In this document: positions 31 to 62,324 of the stretch, one piece after another | Position numbering within the stretch: position 1 is the stretch's first letter | Layout: the number at the start of each line of letters is the position of its first letter | Virus record (IMG/VR): IMGVR_UViG_3300045988_126562 | Length of the DNA: 64,000 nucleotides | Strand: one strand, 5' to 3' | Source of the DNA: a virus | Program-made: the position numbers and the translations under genes | Notes under the pieces: generated by a model | Database searches by the model: none | Seen by the model: the letters and a program-made list of their open reading frames with translations, nothing else | Told to the model about the DNA's origin: nothing

Positions 31-831
31 TCATTGTTGTTTGATGAAATTATCGAAATCATTAATAACCTTAATCATCTCTTTTGGTAATATTTCCAGA
101 GCGTAGTCTTTCATATCTTCATTCATTTCTTTCCAATAAGCATATGCTATGCTTCCAGATATTGCTCCTATTGTATCTGCATCCCCACCTAAATATATAG
201 CATTTCTAATACAACTCTCATAGCTGGTAGATTCTAGAAAACATCTAATAGCCTGGGGCACAGACCCTTCACAACTAGAGTCAAAGGTATATCCTTTTCT
301 TACTTTTTCAATAGGTGCATCAAAATCATAGTTTGGGTAATATTCAGAAGCAATATCAGTTAATTCTTTCTTTGTGTAACCTTCACGAGCAGACCATATC
401 AAATCAGCTACACAATTAGCTCCTATAATTCCTTTCTTATGATTATGTGTTATTTCTGCTTGTTTGGTAGAAAAATAAAGAACATCCTCATATTCATACA
501 AATATCCGCATGGACTAACCCTCATTGCCGAGCCATTACCATAACTACCATAAGGTTCTTTCTTGTCAGAAACTATCCATTTTTTAAATAATTTGCCGTA
601 TCCAGCATATGGATACTTACTACACCACTTTGATACAAAAGTTGTAAAATCAGGATTCTTTGGATTATGAATAATAGCTTCAGCTACACCTATTGTACAT
701 ACTGTATCATCAGTGAATTTCCCCTTATTTTCGAATAGGTCAAAACATGGACTATTTTGTCTAGATTTTTTAAATTCATAGGGCTGACCAAATATATCTC
801 CTACTATTGCTCCTAATAATAAGTTATTCAT
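31..831 (-). CDS. ADP-ribosylglycohydrolase family protein (ARH/DraG-like)
   Basis: 266-aa ORF with family-type motifs GAIVGDIFG, FTDDT, GNGSAMR and GGDADTIGAISG. Its start overlaps the stop of the upstream gene. Confidence 0.75.
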   Translation of the reverse strand: MNNLLLGAIVGDIFGQPYEFKKSRQNSPCFDLFENKGKFTDDTVCTIGVAEAIIHNPKNPDFTTFVSKWCSKYPYAGYGKLFKKWIVSDKKEPYGSYGNGSAMRVSPCGYLYEYEDVLYFSTKQAEITHNHKKGIIGANCVADLIWSAREGYTKKELTDIASEYYPNYDFDAPIEKVRKGYTFDSSCEGSVPQAIRCFLESTSYESCIRNAIYLGGDADTIGAISGSIAYAYWKEMNEDMKDYALEILPKEMIKVINDFDNFIKQQ

Positions 832-1106
832 GATTGAGTTTTTGCATATTTTAAATAAGACCCTGGAAACCTATACTGTAGTTTATTATAAAATACTATT
901 AAGTCATTTGTATTAGAATCACTACATAATGATGCTCCATTAGTAGCCGTTTCTAGCTTATAGGAATCAGAGTCCAAATCGTACAATATTACTCCTATAA
1001 AATCTCCATTTTTACTAAATACTAGAAATAAACCTTGATCTGCATTTCCATCACATAAATCTACCGTTTCATGAGAATCAGGTAGAACTACATCTAACAT
1101 TTTCAT
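828..1106 (-). CDS. hypothetical protein
   Basis: 92-aa ORF with stop/start overlaps to both neighbours, suggesting an operon. Confidence 0.5.
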   Translation of the reverse strand: MKMLDVVLPDSHETVDLCDGNADQGLFLVFSKNGDFIGVILYDLDSDSYKLETATNGASLCSDSNTNDLIVFYNKLQYRFPGSYLKYAKTQS

Positions 1107-2053
1107 AAGTTGATTTCTTTGATTGGTTTTAGGTTAAATGAGCTGGGAGTTATTTTTACACAATCCTTAGTTAGAATAATATTCTTACTAAGAGATTCTG
1201 CTGGATACATCCAGGTTTTAATTTTATTACTCTTTTCTAGTTGATTAATAAAATGAGCACCAAAGGACACATTTTTATATTTCCAAGGATCTTTATACAG
1301 AACATCTTCTAGATACTCCCATGTTCCTTCTTGTAATCCTTCTTTACTTCTACCAGATGGCATCAGTGGTAATAACACATGATAATAAATATTTTTACCA
1401 TATTCTTCTACCACTTTTAAAAACTCATCCACTGACTTATTATCTGATATAATGTGGTGTATGTTCACTTTTACATCAGATAAAGACAATAAATTGTTTA
1501 CGGCTTTTGTAGCTCTTTCCCTTAAAACCGGGTTACTAAAGCTAACAGCTACTCCACCACAATATTTAGATGTATACTCCAATATATTTCTAGCCAAAGA
1601 AGTAGACTCATCCGATAATACAATTCCGTTAGTAGTATAATTAGGGACTACTCCGCTATCATATACTGTTTTTAGAAACTCACAAAATTGAGGATGAATA
1701 GTAGGTTCTCCAGTAGAACCAATTGCTATTTGAAAAGGTTTCTCTGTAACAATAACATTAGTACTTTCTACCTGTTTATCTTCAGGGAATGTAGCCATCC
1801 ATTTTTTCCATGTTTCACAAATGTCTTGAAAATCAGTTCCTTTATTTGTAGCACTCACATAGCAGAATGGACATTCAGCATTACACCTAGTGTTAATACC
1901 TACGTCATAAAACTCACTTCTGTCAGGTTCCAATTCACTAGCTACCCCTTTACCTAATCTTACTGTTTTAAGATTATGCCAAATAGCATGATAATTCTTG
2001 TTAGGAAATTTTCTTACTTTAATCTTACTAAATAAATCTTCGTGCTTGTTCAT
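1103..2053 (-). CDS. radical SAM domain protein
   Basis: 316 aa with a CxxxCxxC cluster (CNAECPFCY), a GSTGEPT glycine-rich motif and TNG. Confidence 0.7.
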   Translation of the reverse strand: MNKHEDLFSKIKVRKFPNKNYHAIWHNLKTVRLGKGVASELEPDRSEFYDVGINTRCNAECPFCYVSATNKGTDFQDICETWKKWMATFPEDKQVESTNVIVTEKPFQIAIGSTGEPTIHPQFCEFLKTVYDSGVVPNYTTNGIVLSDESTSLARNILEYTSKYCGGVAVSFSNPVLRERATKAVNNLLSLSDVKVNIHHIISDNKSVDEFLKVVEEYGKNIYYHVLLPLMPSGRSKEGLQEGTWEYLEDVLYKDPWKYKNVSFGAHFINQLEKSNKIKTWMYPAESLSKNIILTKDCVKITPSSFNLKPIKEINL

Positions 2054-2057
2054 ATTT

Positions 2058-2426
2058 TTATAAAAAATCTATTGTATAATTTCCTGGTATATTATGAGTT
2101 TTAAGAACAGCTTCTAATCCTGCTCTATAAAAGGTGTCACAGTCTTCATATCCAGAACCATATGGCATTGTTATATCAATCCATGCTTCTGGAAGATTAT
2201 TCCACTCTTCCTCACTATACCATATTTTATCCTCATCCTCCTTCTTTCTATAATCAACTACTGGGTGTATTTCTGAATCACCATCTGTAGGTAAAATCCC
2301 ACTCAGTATTTCATAGATAAATTCGCAGACGTCCTTTTCAGCGCTAATAGTGCAAAATACTTCACTACTACTGTTTGTTATTATGTCTCCGAATGATTGT
2401 ATATTAATGCCGATATTCTGATGCAT
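2058..2426 (-). CDS. ITNSSSE-leader family paralog 1
   Basis: Track ORF 2058..2483 trimmed to Met20 (MHQNIGINIQSFGDIITNSSSEVF) by alignment with the five paralogs. Divergent acidic C-terminus. Confidence 0.6.
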   Translation of the reverse strand: MHQNIGINIQSFGDIITNSSSEVFCTISAEKDVCEFIYEILSGILPTDGDSEIHPVVDYRKKEDEDKIWYSEEEWNNLPEAWIDITMPYGSGYEDCDTFYRAGLEAVLKTHNIPGNYTIDFL

Positions 2427-2775
2427 AGCATTCACTCCTTGCATTGTCATAGACTTCTTCACATGTAGGAAAATGATCCTCAATCTTTACTATGTATAAA
2501 CCCTTTAAAGTATTAAATTCTTCAGAGTTATTATCTACGATTTCATCCCAATCATCAGTTCTCCAATTATATTTTATAGATAAGTAATTGCAGAACAACT
2601 CATCATATTCACTATGACTTTTTATCCAATCTAAATCTCCTATTGCACAAATATCTATGCACTCATCACTTATATTTCTATAATTGTCCACATAATATGG
2701 ATGCATTAGAAATACTTCCGAACTAGAGTTAGTTATCAAGTCACTGAATGATTGTATAGCACTTATAAATTTCAT
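2404..2775 (-). CDS. ITNSSSE-leader family paralog 2
   Basis: N-terminus MKFISAIQSFSDLITNSSSEVF; the rest is unrelated to its paralogs. Confidence 0.65.
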   Translation of the reverse strand: MKFISAIQSFSDLITNSSSEVFLMHPYYVDNYRNISDECIDICAIGDLDWIKSHSEYDELFCNYLSIKYNWRTDDWDEIVDNNSEEFNTLKGLYIVKIEDHFPTCEEVYDNARSECYASEYRH

Positions 2776-3302
2776 TGTTCTATTTTATTACCGTCATCAT
2801 CTACTATATAATCGTCTTCATTCCAGCTCAATAGCTTTACTACTCTCCCCTCTTTGTTTCTCGCTACTGGGCACTCGCAATCTACTACAAACAAATTTTC
2901 CAAAATCCAGTCTATAGTATGTGTAAACCCATGATCAATATCCACACTTATTTCCTTTTCTAGTTCTTCTAAAGGCTTCTTATTACCTATAGCATGTACT
3001 TCCTTAGTATATAAGTGTTTTTTGTTTTCGGGTATATAAGACAAATATTCTTGATAGTAATCATCAAAGGTTTTAACTTCTAATATACCTCCCATCCCTG
3101 AACTAATGTCATATTTTTCTTTTTCTTCATCTGACATTTCTACCCAATTTTCCCAACTTCCATTATACTTAAATTGGGAATGCACCTTCTCTATCAAGGA
3201 CTGTAATTCTTTTTTAGGCATATCAGTCCTAATACTGAATATTTCTGAACTGGAATTAGTTATTACATCTGAAATTGATTGGACTTTTATACTTAGTTGC
3301 AT
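2772..3302 (-). CDS. ITNSSSE-leader family paralog 3
   Basis: N-terminus MQLSIKVQSISDVITNSSSEIFSIRTD. Confidence 0.65.
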   Translation of the reverse strand: MQLSIKVQSISDVITNSSSEIFSIRTDMPKKELQSLIEKVHSQFKYNGSWENWVEMSDEEKEKYDISSGMGGILEVKTFDDYYQEYLSYIPENKKHLYTKEVHAIGNKKPLEELEKEISVDIDHGFTHTIDWILENLFVVDCECPVARNKEGRVVKLLSWNEDDYIVDDDGNKIEQ

Positions 3303-3574
3303 ATCTCTAGTACTTTTAATTGTTTATTTATAAGAGGAAGTTCTTCCTTATCTATAGATACCCAAATAGACCTTTTCAAATCTGACAGAAGAGAATCATA
3401 AGATAAGGAAAAAATTTCTTCAGTGGCTAAGTTCCTCTTACTCTTTTTTACTGAATTTTTATACTTGGAAAACATTTCTCCAAATGTATATGTTATTGGG
3501 GAATATCCTAATAACTCCTTTAGAAGATTTAGAACATTATCACTATACTCAACAATAGCTAGCATCGTAATCAA
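3293..3574 (-). CDS. hypothetical protein
   Basis: 93-aa ORF inside the paralog array; it lacks the shared leader motif. Confidence 0.45.
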   Translation of the reverse strand: MITMLAIVEYSDNVLNLLKELLGYSPITYTFGEMFSKYKNSVKKSKRNLATEEIFSLSYDSLLSDLKRSIWVSIDKEELPLINKQLKVLEICN

Positions 3575-4073
3575 ATAAGCCGTTGATCTTATTCAGGATA
3601 GCTGCATTATGTATGTTACTTGGATCCTTTGATTTAATAACATAGGAAGAATCATAATACCACTCTGGATCTGATTCATTATGTGATTTAGCAAATTCAT
3701 CCAAGCTTAAACTACCACAATTATTTACCATATAGTGGTATATTTTCTCTTCTACATCGGACGCATCACTCCAGAGTCTTTTAGAAACTTTATCATCATA
3801 ATTTTTTAATAATTCCTCAAGATCTGGATGTTTACCAGGATTTTCTTCTATTTCCTCTTTAGCTTCATCAACATACCATCCATCTGTATCTCCAACTTCC
3901 AAATTATATTCCACTTTTATAGTGAATAGATCGTCGCAGGTTAAATCAGATCCAGCAGATTTTAAAACAGCATTTATAATCTCTTTTACAGCTTCTGGGC
4001 TAGTAGCCCAAGTAAAGACGGATGTAGAGCTATTTGTAATTAAGTCTACGTATGATTGTATAATGTATTTCAT
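3549..4073 (-). CDS. ITNSSSE-leader family paralog 4 (variant motif)
   Basis: N-terminus MKYIIQSYVDLITNSSTSVF; acidic C-terminal part. Confidence 0.6.
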   Translation of the reverse strand: MKYIIQSYVDLITNSSTSVFTWATSPEAVKEIINAVLKSAGSDLTCDDLFTIKVEYNLEVGDTDGWYVDEAKEEIEENPGKHPDLEELLKNYDDKVSKRLWSDASDVEEKIYHYMVNNCGSLSLDEFAKSHNESDPEWYYDSSYVIKSKDPSNIHNAAILNKINGLFDYDASYC

Positions 4074-4086
4074 TTTACTTGTGTAT

Positions 4087-4749
4087 TTATCCCAGATGTA
4101 TATGGAATCCGTTTAGTAGTTCTGTGATTATATCAAAGGTATCATAAGGAATAGAATTGTCTTCTGTACTTATTATAAGAATTTTTCCATCTAAGTATTG
4201 TAAAGTTTCTTCTTCCTTTGGATTCCACCATGACGGTAATGGTTTTCCGGATTTTTCATATTCCTGAAAAAAGATTTTGCATTTTTCTAAAGCTCCTGGA
4301 ATTTCCATCACATCATAATAATCACACCCTCTTTTTCCTTCCATTTTATATCCTAATCCCTCTAAAAAATCGAAATATTCTATAAGAAACATATAGGTAT
4401 TTTTATAGTATTTTCCATCAAGATTAGATGCACTCTCCATTCTATACCTCGCTAAAGCGTATTCGTCTTCTAAATCTATAAACCATCCTTCTACTGTGCC
4501 ATAGTAACTTCCATATCCCCAATTTCCTTTATACATTAAAGTGTATGGGTCTGCTGGTCTATTATAAAAAGCCTTTCTGTAGTCATTCAAAGAAAATCTC
4601 ATAGGTTCTTCAAACCCAGTGGTTATTTCTTTAAGAACATTAAATACTTGCTCTTCAGTTAATTTCGTATCAGTTACGAATAATTCTGAAGAAGAATTGG
4701 TCACTACGTCACTAAAGGATTGTACAGGTATAATTAGCAAATTAACCAT
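4087..4749 (-). CDS. ITNSSSE-leader family paralog 5
   Basis: N-terminus MVNLLIIPVQSFSDVVTNSSSELF. Confidence 0.65.
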   Translation of the reverse strand: MVNLLIIPVQSFSDVVTNSSSELFVTDTKLTEEQVFNVLKEITTGFEEPMRFSLNDYRKAFYNRPADPYTLMYKGNWGYGSYYGTVEGWFIDLEDEYALARYRMESASNLDGKYYKNTYMFLIEYFDFLEGLGYKMEGKRGCDYYDVMEIPGALEKCKIFFQEYEKSGKPLPSWWNPKEEETLQYLDGKILIISTEDNSIPYDTFDIITELLNGFHIHLG

Positions 4750-5047
4750 AATATTCAGATGTTATATTTTGTGAGCCAAATATTAATTTAAGTATACTAG
4801 ATATGTCTTCTCCTACATTGCACATAACTGGATAACTTAATATCAATTCTCCAGGAGACTCTTCATAAATATCTCCAAGAATAGTATCATCGTCATCCTC
4901 TATATTATATCCCCATTTTTTAAGTATTTTATTCCATACTTCTCTGAAGGTTTCTGGAGATACGTCTGTGCGTATAGAAAATATTTCGGAACTAGAATTA
5001 GTTATTATATCTGAGACACTTTGTATATTTACTTTAAATCTTGTCAT
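4742..5047 (-). CDS. ITNSSSE-leader family paralog 6
   Basis: N-terminus MTRFKVNIQSVSDIITNSSSEIFSIRTD. Confidence 0.65.
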   Translation of the reverse strand: MTRFKVNIQSVSDIITNSSSEIFSIRTDVSPETFREVWNKILKKWGYNIEDDDDTILGDIYEESPGELILSYPVMCNVGEDISSILKLIFGSQNITSEYYG

Positions 5048-5065
5048 AAATACAAAAAGCTGCCC

Positions 5066-5641
5066 TTATTGGGCAGCTTTAATTAATTGGTAAAAATATT
5101 CTTTAGGAAGGATTACTACTTCCCCCTCACTAGACATATTAACCTGTCCTTCTTTTACATTCTGTTTATTCCAGAATATAACGAGAGGTTTATCTTTTAA
5201 TGGACAAGCCTCTGCTATAGCATGATAAGAAGGAGTAGGTTTAGTACATTTTATTTGAGCATAAAAGGGAAGTCTGCCAGATGGATCTATTAAATCCACC
5301 TTCATGTTATCCATTTTCTTACTTTCTCCAGCCGAAGTTACTAGTTCTGGATATCCCAGTTCTTTTAATTCATTTCTTATTTTATACTCATATGCTCTTC
5401 CCTTATTTTTAGCATATTTTCCTCCTCTTCTTTTGGTTTTTGCTTTTTCCTCATCACATTTAATACATCCGCTTCTTACTAAATGCGATTTTGCTTTTTG
5501 GGTAACTTCCCCATGTATAGGGCAAATAAACGTAAATGGTTCATCTAATCCTTTGTATTCAGAAGAGGAATAGTCATATTTGTCTCCATGTTTTGGTTTA
5601 CATTTTTTCTCGATAAATTCTTCAGTCGTGTATTTAGCCAT
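5066..5641 (-). CDS. putative nuclease with N-terminal Cys/His module
   Basis: 191 aa. N-terminal CPIHGEV...CIKC segment; C-terminal VDLID...QIKCTK resembles a PD-(D/E)XK-like core. Overlaps the primase 3' end by 97 nt. Confidence 0.35.
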   Translation of the reverse strand: MAKYTTEEFIEKKCKPKHGDKYDYSSSEYKGLDEPFTFICPIHGEVTQKAKSHLVRSGCIKCDEEKAKTKRRGGKYAKNKGRAYEYKIRNELKELGYPELVTSAGESKKMDNMKVDLIDPSGRLPFYAQIKCTKPTPSYHAIAEACPLKDKPLVIFWNKQNVKEGQVNMSSEGEVVILPKEYFYQLIKAAQ

Positions 5642-6621
5642 TGTATTCCGTCATTAATTAACTCGATCGTCTTATCTCTTCCATATTTTTTATAAAAATC
5701 TGAAATATCCTTTGCACCATAATGTTTAGGAATAAAAAGACAGTGACATCCGAATTTCTTCTTAATTTTGAACATGTTACTTATACCAGCTGAATCATTA
5801 TCATAAAAGACTACTATGACTTTAAATTTTCTCTTTAGTACTTCATACTGTTCTTCAGTTAAAAATAAGTTTTCAGAATTTGGAGCTATAGCTGTTATGC
5901 CTAATCCATATAAGCACATAACATCCTTCATGCTTTTAGTAATAACGCATAGATCCCCCGATTCAGGTAATTGTTTACTTCCTTGAATTAATTTAGATGG
6001 CCAATTAGATAAGAACCTAAATCTGGTTCTAAAAGGAAAATACATCCTCCATAATTCCATATTATTTTTGGATCCATAGTAATATCCAAAAATAAAATTA
6101 TTAGGAGATGAAGATGTAAAATAACCTCCATTTAGAAAAACTGATTTGCAAGAATATACATTAAATTTGCTCAGGGTAGATTCCTCTACTCCGTAAGATT
6201 TCCACCATTCCAATTCTTTTTTTGTAAATGGCTGTATTTGAGCTTGTAGAATACAAGATTCTGTTTCTTTAAGTATGTTTCCACTGTACTCTATAAGTTT
6301 TTCATGTTTTTTTAAATCCTTTCTATGTATAATTCCAAAATCATTAGCTATAATTTGTAAAGCTTTATGAAATGAACATCCATATTTATACATTACTAAA
6401 TTAAAACAATTTCCATAAAAATCGCCTCTAAAATCTTTAAAGATTAAGTCTCCACGCTTATTTTTAAAAAAAGCACATGTGGGATTTTCATCCTTCCTTA
6501 AAGGAGAACAAAACAACCCTTTGCCAACATGGACACCTAAATAGTGTTCCATAATGGCTTCTTGGGATAGTCTCTGTAATATTAATTCCTTAGTTATTGT
6601 TGGTTCAATTTGTATTTCCAT
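5545..6621 (-). CDS. DNA primase (Toprim-type)
   Basis: 358 aa with an N-terminal Cys segment (CSPLRKDENPTC) and acidic Toprim-like motifs (VITKSMKD, VVFYDNDSAG). Sits in the replication module. Confidence 0.55.
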   Translation of the reverse strand: MEIQIEPTITKELILQRLSQEAIMEHYLGVHVGKGLFCSPLRKDENPTCAFFKNKRGDLIFKDFRGDFYGNCFNLVMYKYGCSFHKALQIIANDFGIIHRKDLKKHEKLIEYSGNILKETESCILQAQIQPFTKKELEWWKSYGVEESTLSKFNVYSCKSVFLNGGYFTSSSPNNFIFGYYYGSKNNMELWRMYFPFRTRFRFLSNWPSKLIQGSKQLPESGDLCVITKSMKDVMCLYGLGITAIAPNSENLFLTEEQYEVLKRKFKVIVVFYDNDSAGISNMFKIKKKFGCHCLFIPKHYGAKDISDFYKKYGRDKTIELINDGIQWLNTRLKNLSRKNVNQNMETNMTIPLLNTKD

Positions 6622-9746: not shown

Positions 9747-10367
9747 TTATAATGATTTGATAGCATCCATGTTTATCACTTCGCCATCTCCATTTTGCAT
9801 TGCCTCTAAACTAAGCCAAGCTTGGGCTGATACAAATTCTGCCATACCCATATTTATAAGATTGCGTTCCTTGGCCCAGTCAAGTAAGGACATAATCTTT
9901 TTATGTGTTTCTGGATTATGTTTGATTGCTTTACCATATCCAAATTTTAAATCATCCAAATCTTTGAATTTTCTTCCAGGAGTTCTTAGCATGTGAGTTA
10001 CTCCGTTGATAATCATACTAACTGGATAATTATTGAATAAATCATTCCCCAATTCAGCAGAATATTTAAAATAATTATTTAGGAATATTTTATTAAATTC
10101 TACATCAGCGGGATCAAAAGATTGCCCCCTATCGGGAATTTTATAAGATTTGAGAATGACTCCCTTATTTTGAAGAGAAAGCATGACTTCTCTCAAATCT
10201 TGCCTATCAGATGTGGATAAATATCTAGCTAAATATTCTTTATGGTCTTCCTCCGCACTAGCTAGAAACAATAATCTAACAACTAACCACTCTTCAGCTG
10301 TTAGATGATATTTTTCGAGAACAGATAGCTCATTCTCTATAGTTAAACTTAACTTTTCCAAATACAA
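9747..10367 (-). CDS. hypothetical protein
   Basis: 206-aa ORF. The only available start is TTG, directly after an in-frame TAA. Confidence 0.45.
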   Translation of the reverse strand: MYLEKLSLTIENELSVLEKYHLTAEEWLVVRLLFLASAEEDHKEYLARYLSTSDRQDLREVMLSLQNKGVILKSYKIPDRGQSFDPADVEFNKIFLNNYFKYSAELGNDLFNNYPVSMIINGVTHMLRTPGRKFKDLDDLKFGYGKAIKHNPETHKKIMSLLDWAKERNLINMGMAEFVSAQAWLSLEAMQNGDGEVINMDAIKSL

Positions 10368-10479
10368 TTAGTTTAGATATTACAAAGTAATTATCTATCT
10401 AACTGCAATCAATTTATCCTCCTTTCAGAGTGTTGTCTTGCATATAAATTTGGAACCCTCCTATCAAAGTGTTTAGTTC

Positions 10480-10734
10480 CTATATGTCTCTATCACTTAT
10501 ATACATTCTTTTATTTGCCCAGTCAACGGATTTCTTTACTACATCAAGTAAAGAATCAGATTCGATGTACCAACACCTATACCCATCTTGGGTTATAGTA
10601 GCTTGCCAAATGAACTCTTCTGCACATGGGCCATCATAATCTTCCATATAGTCTAGGCAATTGATTCTTATATTCCAATACCCTATAAATCCTAAATCTA
10701 TAGTTATATCAGAATCTAAATCAGCTTGATTCAT
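10480..10734 (-). CDS. hypothetical protein
   Basis: 84-aa ORF ending in TAG. Confidence 0.45.
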   Translation of the reverse strand: MNQADLDSDITIDLGFIGYWNIRINCLDYMEDYDGPCAEEFIWQATITQDGYRCWYIESDSLLDVVKKSVDWANKRMYISDRDI

Positions 10735-23552: not shown

Positions 23553-23577
23553 ATCTTATATATTTTACTAAATTTTG

Positions 23578-23648
23578 TGATTCCAGTCGGACTCGAACCG
23601 ACGTATTTGGTTTTAGGGACCAACGGATAGCCACTCTCCCATGAAATC
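23578..23648 (-). tRNA. suppressor tRNA, anticodon CUA (amber)
   Basis: GATTTCA/TGGAATC acceptor, anticodon arm TTGGT-CCCTAAA-ACCAA (C at position 33), T arm GTCGG-TTCGAGT-CCGAC. Confidence 0.75.
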
Positions 23649-25237: not shown

Positions 25238-25253
25238 ATCTTAAAATTTAATG

Positions 25254-25594
25254 TGGACGATGAGGGATTCGAACCCTCGTCCTAACTACTTCTCAATAAC
25301 ATAGTATATGCGAAATTACCTTTTTATAGAAGGCTAACTAGGGGAAGCCGATTGGCATCCACTCCACCACTCCATTATAAGTTGGAGAACTATAGAAACC
25401 AATGGTCATTTCTGTTCCTAAGCTGACTTACACTCGACTCTCTTTGCAATTAAGCAGCGATACGAACTTCGTCGATTTCGCGAGAGAAAGAAATTGCATT
25501 ATTCTTTCCATTTAATTGTTTGTACTTATAAGGTAGTCACAACCTTTTCACCTATGTTACCGTTCGTCATAGCAGTCAAAAGCCTGTATCGCCC
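25254..25594 (-). ncRNA. ssrA: tmRNA (transfer-messenger RNA)
   Basis: The 5' GGGCGAT pairs with the 3' ATCGTCC-A, giving G3:U70 and A73. T arm GAGGG-TTCGAAT-CCCTC. Internal tag frame GCA ATT TCT ... GCT GCT TAA (25450..25497) encodes AISFSREIDEVRIAA. Confidence 0.8.
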
Positions 25595-60002: not shown

Positions 60003-62324
60003 ATGGCTAGAGGCAGAAAGAAAGGTTCTAAGTTAATAGAAGGAAAAGTAACTGAAGCTATTAATGAAGCTTTACCTGATAATATAAACCTTACTAAGGT
60101 AGGATTAGGATACAATATCCAAGTAAATGATGAGGCTTTAGAAGGATTTAGCTTGGTAACTAAAGAAAGTGTTGAGGAGGCTAGAAAACAGAATAGTCCT
60201 ATTATGTCTTCCAAAATAAATTGGGATGTTCCAATAGACCAAGAAATATCATACTTCGATTCTGATTTATCTTATGAACTTACTAAATATAGGCCAGTAA
60301 ATGAAACACAAGGATTAGATTTCAATCCTGATTGGTTTACTGAAGTTAGAGATTTGAAAGTTTCTTCTGGTCATTATACCCAATATAAACCTGGAACTAA
60401 ATCTCATAGAGATTTTTGGTCTGAGCAATATAGGAGGTGTATAGAGGGATATGAAGTAAATGGATATAGAATAACAGGAGATAACTACTTCTTTTTGAAC
60501 TTTTATAGGTTAATGAATGTAACAGACGTAAAAGTCGCTGGTAGTGGTCGTGAAGTAAGTTTTCCAAGATTTTTTTCTAAACAATATGAGTATTTTCATT
60601 ATATAGACTTATGCGAACATCTAAAAAAAGATGTATGTGCTTTAAAAGCTCGTGGAGTAGGATTTAGTGAAATAGCCGCATCATTAGGAGTTAGACTGTA
60701 TACAGTAAAAAGGGACATGCACATTATATATTCTGCGTATGCTGAAGGTAAGTTAAAACCACTATTAAAGAAATGTTGGGAACAGTTAGAATTCTTGAAT
60801 GTGGAAACAGAAGATGGAATGCGTCACGTACGGCAAAGATATAATAATGATATGCACAAAAAAGCCTCTAAGTTAAATAAACAGCGTGAAGAGTATGGAT
60901 GGAAATCTGATATACTAGGTATTGTAGTAGATAACCCAAATAAACTTAGAGGTGAGCGTGTGGACCGATTATTCTTTGAAGAAGCTGGTTCTAATCCTGC
61001 TTTATTAAAAACTTATATACAGGCTAATGCTCTTGTAGAAATATTAGGTAATAAGTTTGGTACAAGATTTGTATGGGGTACTGGAGGAGATAGTGGTCCA
61101 GCTTTAGCTGGATTATCAAAAATGTTTTATAATCCCAAGGGATATAATGTATTACCCCATAAACATAGATACTCTAAAACTGGTGATCCTGTAGAAACTG
61201 GGTATTTTATTCCAGCTTTTACTTTTGTAGCAGGAGATGGATATATTGATGATAGAGGAGTAACTCTAACTGAGAAAGCTAAGGCATACTATAATGAAAA
61301 GAAAAATGCTCTCGCAGAAAATGCTAAAGAGTATATAATGTTCTGTGCAGAGTATTGTTTTACTCCAGAAGATGCTTTAGCATTAGAAGGTGATAATCTA
61401 TTTAATAGAGAATTATTAGCTAATCAAAAAGCTGCTATAGAGTTACATAAAAGAGGCCCCAAACCAGTAAATGGGTATTTAGAGTATAAATTTAAAAATA
61501 ACGAACATGCTCAAGAAAATATAGAAGGATTTAAATTTATACCAAGTAATAATAGTAAATTACAAATATTGGAACATCCGATTAAGGGAGAAGATAATTC
61601 TATATTTAGAAATTTATATGTGGCTGGTATAGACGGTATAGACTTAGGGCAAAAAGAGACCTCCGACGCTACTAAAGATCCTTCTGATTTCTGTATAATA
61701 ATTCTTAAAAGAATGCAAGGAGTAAATCCTCCCATGCCAGTGGCTTATTATAAAGATAGACCACAGGACGTGAGAGAAGCATATAGAATTGCACTAAAAC
61801 TATTAGAATACTACAATTGCAAAGCAGTTCTTGAGTTTTCAAAGATAGGCTTTAAGAACTTTCTTGTAGACAAAAATATAGAACATAAGTGGTTAATGAG
61901 AAGAACAAGGGCCACTTTAGATGATCCTAACTCCGTTAGTAAACAATATGGAGTTCCAGCTAATGAAAAAACTATTCAACATCAATTAGAATTAATAGCT
62001 TCATTTGTAGAGGATTGGTGCGAACATATATGGTTTATAGATTTAATAAATGAATTACTAGAATATTCCTACGAGAATAAAAGAAAATTCGATGCTGTAG
62101 CAGCCTTTGGAATGTGTATGCTAGCAGATGAAGAGTTAATAGGAGTATTGCCAAGAGCTGATGAAGTTGTAAATAAAAAGTGGAGAAATGTTGGATGGTA
62201 TACAGATGAAAGAGGATATAAGAAATTTGGAGTAATTCCAGATAAGGACCAAATTACTCAGACAAATATAAGAAACGAATATGACCCATCAAGAGATAGA
62301 AGCAGCCGTCCTAGATACAATTGA
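60003..62324 (+). CDS. terL: terminase large subunit
   Basis: 773 aa with ATPase-like KARGVGFSE and DRLFFEEAG (Walker B plus catalytic Glu) and a nuclease-like VAGIDGIDLG. A portal-like gene follows. Confidence 0.7.
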   Translation: MARGRKKGSKLIEGKVTEAINEALPDNINLTKVGLGYNIQVNDEALEGFSLVTKESVEEARKQNSPIMSSKINWDVPIDQEISYFDSDLSYELTKYRPVNETQGLDFNPDWFTEVRDLKVSSGHYTQYKPGTKSHRDFWSEQYRRCIEGYEVNGYRITGDNYFFLNFYRLMNVTDVKVAGSGREVSFPRFFSKQYEYFHYIDLCEHLKKDVCALKARGVGFSEIAASLGVRLYTVKRDMHIIYSAYAEGKLKPLLKKCWEQLEFLNVETEDGMRHVRQRYNNDMHKKASKLNKQREEYGWKSDILGIVVDNPNKLRGERVDRLFFEEAGSNPALLKTYIQANALVEILGNKFGTRFVWGTGGDSGPALAGLSKMFYNPKGYNVLPHKHRYSKTGDPVETGYFIPAFTFVAGDGYIDDRGVTLTEKAKAYYNEKKNALAENAKEYIMFCAEYCFTPEDALALEGDNLFNRELLANQKAAIELHKRGPKPVNGYLEYKFKNNEHAQENIEGFKFIPSNNSKLQILEHPIKGEDNSIFRNLYVAGIDGIDLGQKETSDATKDPSDFCIIILKRMQGVNPPMPVAYYKDRPQDVREAYRIALKLLEYYNCKAVLEFSKIGFKNFLVDKNIEHKWLMRRTRATLDDPNSVSKQYGVPANEKTIQHQLELIASFVEDWCEHIWFIDLINELLEYSYENKRKFDAVAAFGMCMLADEELIGVLPRADEVVNKKWRNVGWYTDERGYKKFGVIPDKDQITQTNIRNEYDPSRDRSSRPRYN

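Follow-up and report, generated by a model that had tools for sequence, protein, structure and literature searches.

Why would a phage encode, side by side, six acidic proteins that look unrelated to one another except for a shared beginning, and why should these genes run directly into a gene for a radical SAM (rSAM) enzyme? The question arises from one end of a 64,000-nucleotide stretch of viral DNA (IMG/VR record IMGVR_UViG_3300045988_126562; hereafter the window), where the initial annotation had described six tandem paralogs sharing only an N-terminal motif of about 20 amino acids, in an operon with an rSAM enzyme and an ADP-ribosylglycohydrolase (ARH). The features of the locus, all on the minus strand, are as follows.

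5056-5080 (-): terminator-like hairpin (10-bp stem followed by a T-rich tail) between the DUF723-like endonuclease gene and p6, found by a consensus scan only, which may mark the start of a separate transcription unit.
4742-5047 (-): p6, tagged protein of 101 aa (pI 4.2), the minimal form (tag, strand-helix, short acidic insert, strand-helix-strand), with a subfamily that recurs in 14 sequences.
4087-4749 (-): p5, tagged protein of 220 aa, class A, with a C-terminus reading ...DNSIPY...HLG; it or the related HLG-ending class c4 is usually the first gene of arrays.
3549-4073 (-): p4, tagged protein of 174 aa, class B, with a C-terminus reading ...LFDYDASYC.
3293-3574 (-): 93-aa ORF without the tag, conserved (64% identity) only in the closest phage lineage.
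2772-3302 (-): p3, tagged protein of 176 aa.
2404-2775 (-): p2, tagged protein of 123 aa.
2058-2426 (-): p1, tagged protein of 122 aa, usually the last gene before the rSAM; we take the ATG at 2426 by comparison with orthologues, whereas the mechanical ORF call starts further upstream, at a TTG at 2483.
1103-2053 (-): rSAM enzyme, 316 aa.
828-1106 (-): 92-aa acidic ORF downstream of the rSAM, conserved only in the closest lineage, possibly an accessory gene.
31-831 (-): ARH gene.

The observation itself holds. All six proteins start with [QHK]-S-h-x-D-h-I-T-N-S-S-[ST]-E-h-[FY], and this full pattern occurs six times in the six-frame translation of the window, each time at one of these genes, against 0 occurrences in 200 block shuffles; the loose core D..[TS]N[ST]S was observed 6 times against a shuffle mean of 0.26. 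The corresponding 49-nt coding repeat is only 60-80% identical and uses different Ser codons, so that conservation is at the protein level and does not stem from recent duplication or gene conversion. All six proteins are acidic (pI 4.1-4.6), and starts and stops overlap or nearly abut through to the rSAM, the 92-aa ORF and the ARH gene. Three details of the original description required correction. First, the 93-aa ORF sits inside the array; the apparent resemblance of its N-terminus to the tag is not conserved in orthologues. Second, the conserved module spans about 45 aa (strand, polar loop, strand, helix) rather than about 20 aa. Third, the claim that the proteins diverge completely beyond the motif holds for sequence and profile comparison (after trimming of the tag, hhalign gives at most 40% probability between classes, except for one homologous pair, p4 and the related class c2, at 99.6%), but all six keep the same layout of tag, strand-helix, variable insert, strand-helix and C-terminal tail.

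What, then, are these proteins? The initial annotation did not recognize the family, and our searches agree. The family, which we call TNSS-box proteins, is very large (about 1,900 clusters at 50% identity) and essentially restricted to viruses. It returned no hits in Pfam, PHROGs or NCBIfam (nor did the 93-aa and 92-aa ORFs), and PDB profile searches gave E-values of 0.027 or worse. AlphaFold2 models of p5 and p4 have mean pLDDT values of 81.5 and 87.4, yet Foldseek retrieved no fold match for either, with best E-values against PDB of 0.29 (p5) and 0.26 (p4) and of 1.3 against BFVD (p5). In both independent and otherwise confident models, the most conserved residues are the least confident, residues 1-18 of p5 and 1-15 of p4 falling below a pLDDT of 50, such that the tag appears as an unpacked N-terminal tail, although low pLDDT may reflect shallow alignments rather than true flexibility. 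The conserved segment behaves as a separate module. By contrast, the bodies are not the freely variable payloads of a diversifying effector set, as had been envisioned; they fall into anciently diverged orthologous classes kept in a fairly constant order.

The partner enzyme belongs to the radical SAM superfamily. Its single CxxxCxxC motif (C57, C61 and C64), which ligates the [4Fe-4S] cluster, is invariant in 16 diverse homologues, although a few homologues have variant spacing, and no other Cys is conserved. The window protein scores 25.9 bits against PF04055, below the 29.5-bit cut-off, but 15 of 16 family members match this profile (best E-value 1.2e-12), and the best PDB profile match, Tes at 8.5e-10, covers the rSAM core only. 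No SPASM domain was detected by Pfam, and NCBIfam hits are core-only and far below their cut-offs. Pfam likewise detected no RRE (the RiPP leader-recognition element) in 16 homologues, in a family that carries a specific, conserved N-terminal extension of about 50 aa (R14, N20, Y21, K29, T30, R32, E47-D50) of unknown fold.

Is the association with the rSAM conserved? Co-occurrence across related genomes had been set in advance as a test, and it strongly supports the link. Of 76 loci found through the motif, 72 hold an rSAM homologue, usually starting where the last tagged ORF ends, and at least three of the four without one are short or truncated at that point (locus L020 ends at 11.7 kb, L034 is 4.5 kb and L057 is 2.1 kb). 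Conversely, all 159 loci found through the rSAM, in two sets of 80 and 79 from two rSAM clades, hold at least one tagged ORF beside it. This linkage holds in crAss-like phages of about 180 kb and in jumbo-phage contigs of 212-508 kb in which the neighbouring genes are otherwise different. The ARH gene is a genuine member of its family (PF03747 at 1.5e-35, 123.7 bits against a cut-off of 26.2; phrog_6572 at 7.4e-59) and is start/stop-coupled in this phage, but it occurs in only 2 of the 76 loci, both near-identical to the window, and gave no tblastn match in related loci L001-L005. It is a neighbour rather than a component.

Copy number varies from one to six tagged genes per rSAM, and arrays in which only one class could be typed occur, which fits one enzyme with many substrates and argues against a fixed-composition complex. 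In addition, the first position of the tag is Q, H or K and tends to be the same in all paralogs of a genome: among non-redundant arrays, 31 are all-Q, 7 all-H, 3 all-K and 7 mixed, and class A and class B members of one array are Q/Q in 20 cases, H/H in 6 and discordant in 3. Together with the lack of recent gene conversion in the window, this concerted change suggests a common reader. T, N, S and S were unchanged in all 176 unique tags, although the extraction pattern already required N and the last S and limited the other two positions to T/S and S/T/A.

A sister family, including Ma-LMM01 gp130 and Salmonella phage Arash gp146c, carries a TNSSS box next to, or fused to, a related rSAM. In gp146c and 726 homologues the box-containing domain is fused N-terminally to the rSAM; of the top 120, 115 carry ..R.G.ATNSSS[ST]HS.. 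at the N-terminus and have CxxxCxxC at about residue 200-220. The gp130-type domain is conserved along its full length, like an enzyme, with invariant residues including H19, D106, H107, N140 and D141. Homology to the window-type family is not demonstrable beyond the pentapeptide: hhalign probability is at most 22%, alignments anchored at the N-terminus cover little beyond TNSSS, and HMM searches in both directions are not significant. The relationship rests only on the pentapeptide, its position and the related rSAM neighbour.

Of the three interpretations initially offered (a targeting or packaging leader, a recognition leader for the rSAM, or a shared active-site or binding motif), the second is favoured by the conserved synteny, nothing favours the first, and the third is not excluded and gains weight from the sister family in which a TNSSS-box domain is fused to the rSAM; the original interpretation is partly supported. 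Two main models can be envisioned, and our preference for the first is tentative. Under the 'tag modification' model, the tag is the element that the rSAM reads: it would insert as an extended peptide into the lateral opening of the rSAM barrel, possibly held by the N-terminal extension, and the 5'-deoxyadenosyl radical would abstract a hydrogen from one of the invariant T-N-S-S residues, leaving a post-translational modification (candidate chemistries are a formylglycine-type Ser oxidation, an epimerisation or a cross-link) that matures each partner protein. One enzyme would serve one to six co-transcribed protein substrates, expressed with the replication genes. The family, its restriction to viruses, the reciprocal and near-obligate gene linkage, the unpacked tag in the models and the concerted change of a tag position emerge directly from our analysis, whereas physical docking, modification of the tag, its chemistry and the biological role of the matured proteins are inferred from sequences and models alone. 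Several observations weigh against this model: the enzyme-like conservation of the gp130 type; its fusion to the rSAM in more than 700 proteins, fusion being more typical of partner domains or sequential enzymes than of substrates; the lack of SPASM/twitch cysteines and of a detectable RRE, unlike most peptide-modifying rSAMs; and the absence of a conserved protease or exporter in the neighbourhoods. If correct, this would be a phage-specific maturation system in which a minimal, SPASM-less rSAM modifies an N-terminal ITNSS tag on several unrelated-looking whole proteins and, in a sister lineage, acts on its own fused N-terminal domain; leader-guided rSAM chemistry would be applied to folded proteins rather than to peptides, in a system widespread in crAss-like and jumbo phages and so far invisible to every annotation library.

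Conversely, in the 'two-component enzyme' model, which is nearly as likely but equally short of firm, TNSS-box proteins are not substrates but partner subunits or adaptors of the rSAM, the box forming part of a composite active site or binding a cofactor or substrate, and the different bodies directing the enzyme to a third substrate, for example a nucleotide, DNA or RNA. This model draws on the fusion and the enzyme-like conservation in the sister family, on the lack of SPASM and detectable RRE domains, and on the location of the module among replication or nucleic-acid genes: next to primase here, near primase and a Holliday-junction resolvase in Ma-LMM01, and near DNA polymerase or RNA ligase genes in Arash and in locus L249. 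Against it, in the window-type family nothing but the tag and the following helix is conserved between classes, copy number is variable, arrays in which only one class could be typed exist, the tag is not packed against the body in either model, and homology with the gp130 type remains undemonstrated beyond the pentapeptide.

It appears unlikely that the box is the catalytic or ligand-binding loop of small independent enzymes or binding proteins, that is, ordinary but very divergent paralogs acting in the same pathway as the rSAM without direct contact. The invariant residues are polar (T, N, S, S, D and E), as in phosphate- or metal-binding loops that follow a first beta strand, and all paralogs share one overall layout. 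However, neither structural model places the loop in a pocket, no known fold is matched, no second conserved motif is shared between classes, and both the concerted change of the flanking residue and the fusion to the rSAM imply direct coupling. A capsid-targeting or packaging signal, cleaved after S-x-E by a prohead protease and resembling the targeting sequences of T4 internal proteins or the phiKZ inner-body proteins, is very unlikely: the segment is N-terminal and shared by otherwise dissimilar small proteins, and SSE followed by a hydrophobic residue may resemble the S/A/G-x-E protease sites of phiKZ-like phages, but the array lies in the replication module on the replication strand, is linked near-obligately to an rSAM and not to head or protease genes, and in the sister family the box heads the rSAM enzyme itself. 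ADP-ribosylation of the tag serines, reversed by the coupled ARH enzyme, is least likely of all, given that ARH is absent from 74 of 76 related loci and from L001-L005 and that no ADP-ribosyltransferase was seen in the module.

Among known systems, RiPP precursor arrays with a conserved leader and an rSAM maturase (for example, NHLP/Nif11-leader precursors and SCIFF/rSAM-SPASM systems) similarly consist of tandem, variable-number genes that share an N-terminal segment, are otherwise dissimilar and sit directly beside one rSAM gene. Here, however, the partners are folded acidic proteins of 100-290 aa in old orthologous classes rather than short hypervariable cores, the rSAM has a single Fe-S motif with no SPASM/twitch domain and no detectable RRE, no leader peptidase or exporter is present, the invariant residues lie inside the 'leader', and the system is found only in phages (the tagged family being essentially virus-restricted). 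The anaerobic sulfatase-maturating enzyme (anSME/AtsB) also acts on a short Ser-containing motif near the N-terminus of whole proteins, with one maturase serving several paralogous substrates, but its C/S-x-P-x-R motif is different, it carries two auxiliary clusters in a SPASM domain, and sulfatases share one large fold, whereas the bodies here cannot be aligned with each other. Glycyl-radical-enzyme activases (PflA and NrdG) are small, SPASM-less, single-cluster rSAMs acting on a folded protein partner encoded next to them, but their target is a Gly in an RVxG motif near the C-terminus, whereas here there is no conserved Gly and the conserved element is N-terminal. The uncharacterized Ma-LMM01 gp130/gp128, Arash gp146c and Vibrio phage D479 VPHD479_0110 (phrog_28997 and phrog_7397, with rSAM phrog_16999 and phrog_7293) share an N-terminal strand followed by [TS]NSSS, the same replication-module context and an adjacent or fused rSAM of about 290-400 aa, scoring 39-79 bits against the window-type rSAM profile, compared with at most 41 bits for any PDB rSAM; yet they are single-copy and conserved along their full length with extra invariant His/Asp/Asn residues, and their box reads G-h-[AE]-T-N-S-S-S-[ST]-H-S and lacks the QS..D part. 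Finally, the capsid-targeting sequences of T4 internal proteins are likewise short N-terminal segments shared by otherwise unrelated small phage proteins, but T4 shows no enzyme linkage, whereas here the linkage to an rSAM is near-obligate and the genes lie in the replication module.

The region 31-5047 of the window holds ten minus-strand open reading frames (ORFs) whose starts and stops overlap or nearly abut, six of which share an N-terminal motif (the tag, or TNSS box). The initial annotation had described six tandem genes with a common N-terminal motif here, and this observation is confirmed. The features concerned are:

4742-5047, minus strand, tagged paralog p6
4087-4749, minus strand, tagged paralog p5
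3549-4073, minus strand, tagged paralog p4
3293-3574, minus strand, 93-aa ORF without the motif, inside the array
2772-3302, minus strand, tagged paralog p3
2404-2775, minus strand, tagged paralog p2
2058-2426, minus strand, tagged paralog p1
1103-2053, minus strand, radical SAM (rSAM) gene
5056-5080, terminator-like hairpin separating the array from the upstream endonuclease gene

The full pattern occurs six times in the six-frame translation of the 64-kb window, only at these genes, and zero times in 200 shuffles, whereas a loose five-residue core was observed 6 times against a shuffle mean of 0.26. The DNA encoding the motif is only 60-80% identical between copies and uses different serine codons, indicating that selection acts on the protein and ruling out recent duplication or gene conversion as the cause of the repeat. 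All six proteins are acidic (pI 4.1-4.6). The possibility that the 93-aa ORF is a decayed paralog was rejected because its resemblance to the tag is absent from its orthologues.

Upstream of the array, in the direction of transcription, lie genes for a helicase, a DnaB-like helicase, a Sak4-like protein, a primase and a DUF723-like endonuclease, and the array is therefore part of the replication module. The primase ORF ends in TAG and overlaps the start of the DUF723-like endonuclease ORF by 97 nt (5066-6621), and in a phage with an amber suppressor this stop may be read through. The window carries 26 tRNA genes scattered among small ORFs on the minus strand (16782-50070), including an amber-suppressor tRNA (anticodon CTA, 23577-23648) and a tmRNA-like gene (25253-25594) with the tag peptide GKNNAISFSREIDEVRIAA. 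Coding strand and GC skew switch sign near 55.5-56 kb (about 55.3-56.4 kb of the window), and the plus-strand block contains a large terminase gene (60003-62324; phrog_6681, 3.2e-75) that is crAss-like, at 29% identity to crAss-like phages and 60% to an unannotated gut phage contig. Related contigs are 173-190 kb. Both features, the contig size and the tRNA complement with its suppressor, fit what has been described for Zeta crAss-like phages (PMC12386605), although this assignment remains tentative. Megablast searches with the first 12 kb, and tblastn searches with the rSAM and with p5, found no match in the GenBank phage collection. In L003, a related locus, a DnaB_C helicase ORF (301 aa) is followed immediately by a LAGLIDADG_2 endonuclease ORF and then a 78-aa ORF (2161-4183), suggesting a mobile insertion in the replicative helicase gene of a relative.

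No paralog matches Pfam, PHROGs or NCBIfam. A word-indexed search nevertheless found 1,879 relatives, none with a Pfam domain, and an exhaustive HMM search with a 42-column N-terminal profile found 1,941 clusters at 50% identity (E <= 0.001), in proteins of 35-279 aa with the match almost always at residues 1-45. Only 10 loci turned up among 185,579 bacterial and archaeal species genomes, all on metagenome-assembled genome contigs of at most 41 kb, and the family is therefore essentially viral. The residue preferences of 176 unique tags are summarized below; the complete conservation of T-N-S-S is partly by construction, because the pattern used to extract the tags already required N and the last S and limited the other two positions to T/S and S/T/A.

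Table. Consensus of 176 unique tags (position relative to T; residues and frequency)
-7: Q 67%, H 18%, K 6%
-6: S 95%
-3: D 94%
-1: I 93%
0 to +3: T-N-S-S 100%
+4: S 70%, T 27%
+5: E 87%
+7: F or Y 97%

We next asked whether the portions that follow the tag are related. After the tag was trimmed off, profile-profile comparison detected homology only between p4 and a related class, c2 (99.6%), and weakly linked p5 to another class, c4, which shares its C-terminal ...HLG (40%), whereas all other pairs scored below 25%, mostly only over the 20-30 residues that follow the tag. The statement in the initial annotation that the proteins diverge completely beyond a motif of about 20 aa is therefore correct at the sequence level, although the conserved module is about 45 aa. 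However, the proteins are not a freely diversifying set. Specifically, each paralog has orthologues at 40-57% identity in related phages, in the same gene order; arrays in distant phages usually contain one class-A member (p5/c4, HLG end) and one class-B member (p4/c2, ...F-DY-A-YC end); and all paralogs share one layout of tag, strand-helix, variable insert, strand-helix and short C-terminal tail. The AlphaFold2 models of p5 (pLDDT 81.5) and p4 (87.4) are confident except for the tag, with residues 1-18 of p5 and 1-15 of p4 below pLDDT 50. In Foldseek searches neither model matches any PDB fold, and the p5 model matches nothing in BFVD; PDB sequence-profile searches with p5 and p4 likewise gave no meaningful match. 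The flavodoxin/NrdI FMN loop, the PRPP loop of phosphoribosyltransferases, HAD motif I, the PP-loop, SGNH blocks I, III and V, Toprim, metallophosphoesterase motifs and the AdoMetDC self-cleavage site were all considered and rejected as family assignments, as the motifs do not match residue for residue and the two confident models show none of those common folds.

Some members depart from this organization. In the IMG/VR contigs L006 and L007, whose rSAM is 99% identical to that of the window, the p5 orthologue (10001-10660) has a different start and is frameshifted after ...YKGNW, representing either a real pseudogene or an assembly error; stop-codon recoding was considered for the truncated p5 of L006, but translation shows a frameshift instead. 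A metagenomic protein, P0112 (251 aa), has two TNSS boxes in a single ORF, at about residues 6 and 116, and looks like a fusion of a truncated p4-like protein to a p3-like protein, so that the box can be internal, unless this is a sequencing artefact.

The decisive result is the linkage to the rSAM gene. Of 76 loci retrieved through the motif, 75 contain tagged ORFs, mostly 3-4 (range 1-6), and of these loci 72 contain a homologue of the rSAM, nearly always starting where the last tagged ORF ends and on the same strand, while at least three of the four without one are short or truncated at that point. The arrangement of one or more tagged genes followed by the rSAM also holds in contigs of 212-508 kb that lack the crAss-like neighbours. 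The reverse test agrees: all 80 loci retrieved with the rSAM profile have at least one tagged ORF beside the rSAM, and so do all 79 new loci retrieved with a profile of a distant rSAM clade. Three short ORFs (P0185, P0223 and P0230) join a TNSS-box N-terminus to the C-terminal end of the rSAM; these are apparent deletion chimeras or assembly chimeras, and they also attest to the adjacency of the two genes. In the related loci L001 (12585-15059) and L009, the rSAM orthologue is split into residues 1-113 and 113-316 by an insert of about 1.45 kb that carries a GIY-YIG/NUMOD1 homing endonuclease, yet both halves are intact and the insert looks intron-like, and several other loci (L048, L050, L058 and L060-L063) show two or three rSAM fragments. 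By contrast, the ADP-ribosylglycohydrolase (ARH) gene, which the initial annotation had placed in one operon with the array and the rSAM, occurs in only two loci, both near-identical to the window, and the 92-aa and 93-aa ORFs are confined to the closest lineage.

The rSAM family has one invariant CxxxCxxC and no other conserved cysteine, a conserved extension of about 50 aa at the N-terminus, and conserved motifs throughout. PF04055 matches 15 of 16 members, whereas NCBIfam and PDB profile hits cover the core only and are far below family cut-offs, the best PDB hits being Tes, SuiB, TYW1, CteB and SkfB. No SPASM/twitch domain or RRE (RiPP leader-recognition) domain is detectable.

The residue at the Q position of the tag differs between phage lineages (Q, H, K, L or D) but is mostly the same in all paralogs of one array, with 31 all-Q, 7 all-H, 3 all-K and 7 mixed cases among non-redundant arrays. 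In arrays that contain both of the anciently separated classes, A/B pairs are Q/Q in 20, H/H in 6 and discordant in 3, with classes typed using profiles that exclude the tag. As the DNA in the window shows no gene conversion, this pattern argues that all tags in a genome are read by one common partner.

A distant rSAM query revealed a sister module in cultured phages, hitting Salmonella phage Arash gp146c, Vibrio phage D479 and the Microcystis phages. Arash gp146c (476 aa; OQ632216.1, positions 4431-5861 of the retrieved locus) begins MYLTQIRYGFATNSSSSHSVIL; its first 141 residues or so are homologous to Ma-LMM01 gp130 (MLSIQVRQGVFETNSSSTHSISI), and its C-terminal part is an rSAM (PF04055 at 1.9e-13, phrog_16999 at 5e-29), so that its annotation as a 'methyltransferase' is probably wrong. 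In Microcystis phage Ma-LMM01, gp130 lies one gene upstream of the rSAM gp128, close to the primase, and in D479 a 132-aa protein that begins MKIRNGFVSNSSSSSFVI lies 1.4 kb upstream of an rSAM. The gp130 family has 1,082 relatives and no Pfam domain, the weak hits in its members (InPase, DUF5680) all being below threshold and uninformative, and a PDB profile search gave no meaningful match. It is conserved along its full length, with invariant R7, F11, T13-S17, H19, S20, D106, H107, G139, N140 and D141, and in contigs of 375-485 kb it is followed directly by an rSAM of about 292 aa. The fused form has 726 relatives; of the top 120, 115 carry ...R.G.ATNSSS[ST]HS... at the N-terminus, with the Fe-S motif at about residue 200-220. 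These rSAMs score 39-79 bits against the window-type rSAM profile, higher than nearly any solved rSAM (at most 41 bits). Profile methods do not detect homology between gp130-type and window-type proteins beyond TNSSS, and the relationship is therefore inferred from the shared pentapeptide, its N-terminal position and the related rSAM neighbour.

What the analysis establishes is a two-part phage module made of an rSAM clade and one to six proteins with an N-terminal ITNSS box; any docking, modification or catalysis is inferred. Under the best-supported mechanism, which we advance only tentatively, the box is the element on which the rSAM acts, that is, a docking and modification site on whole proteins. 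In favour of this model, one enzyme is paired with a variable number of partners that share only the box, the box is unpacked in both models, the flanking position changes in concert across paralogs, and the residues that never vary in the sample carry hydroxyl or amide groups. Nearly as likely, and equally provisional, is an alternative model in which the box proteins are partner subunits or adaptors of a composite enzyme acting on a third substrate, perhaps a nucleic acid, as suggested by the widespread fusion to the rSAM, the enzyme-like conservation of the gp130 type, the location in the replication module and the lack of detectable SPASM and RRE domains in the rSAM. Independent small enzymes sharing a catalytic loop appear unlikely, and a capsid-targeting leader or an ADP-ribosylation cycle with ARH very unlikely. 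The interpretation in the initial annotation, which had proposed a capsid-targeting or packaging signal, a recognition leader for the neighbouring rSAM or a shared active-site or binding motif, is partly supported.

The module, none of whose parts has a name or a known function, is abundant, with about 1,900 clusters of the window type, about 1,100 of the gp130 type and over 700 fused forms, and occurs in abundant human-gut crAss-like phages and in environmental jumbo phages. Its gene linkage is about as strict as comparative genomics can show and thus gives a directly testable enzyme-partner pair with a short conserved peptide amenable to synthesis and assay, while the presence of the sister module in cultured phages (Arash and Ma-LMM01) makes experiments feasible. 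If the tag is modified, this would extend radical SAM 'leader logic' from peptides to full proteins and reveal a new phage post-translational modification. Conversely, if the tag forms part of a composite enzyme, it would define a new rSAM partner domain, probably acting in nucleic-acid metabolism. Among the libraries and papers that could be searched, none describes the tag, the protein family or this rSAM clade, no paper mentions the motif or an rSAM in these phages, and the Ma-LMM01 transcriptome paper does not mention gp128-gp130 in its main text. The logic of the module resembles leader-guided rSAM maturation and the maturation of sulfatases by anSME, but it fails the defining features of both, and there is a substantial chance that it is something more distinct than a variation on these two systems.
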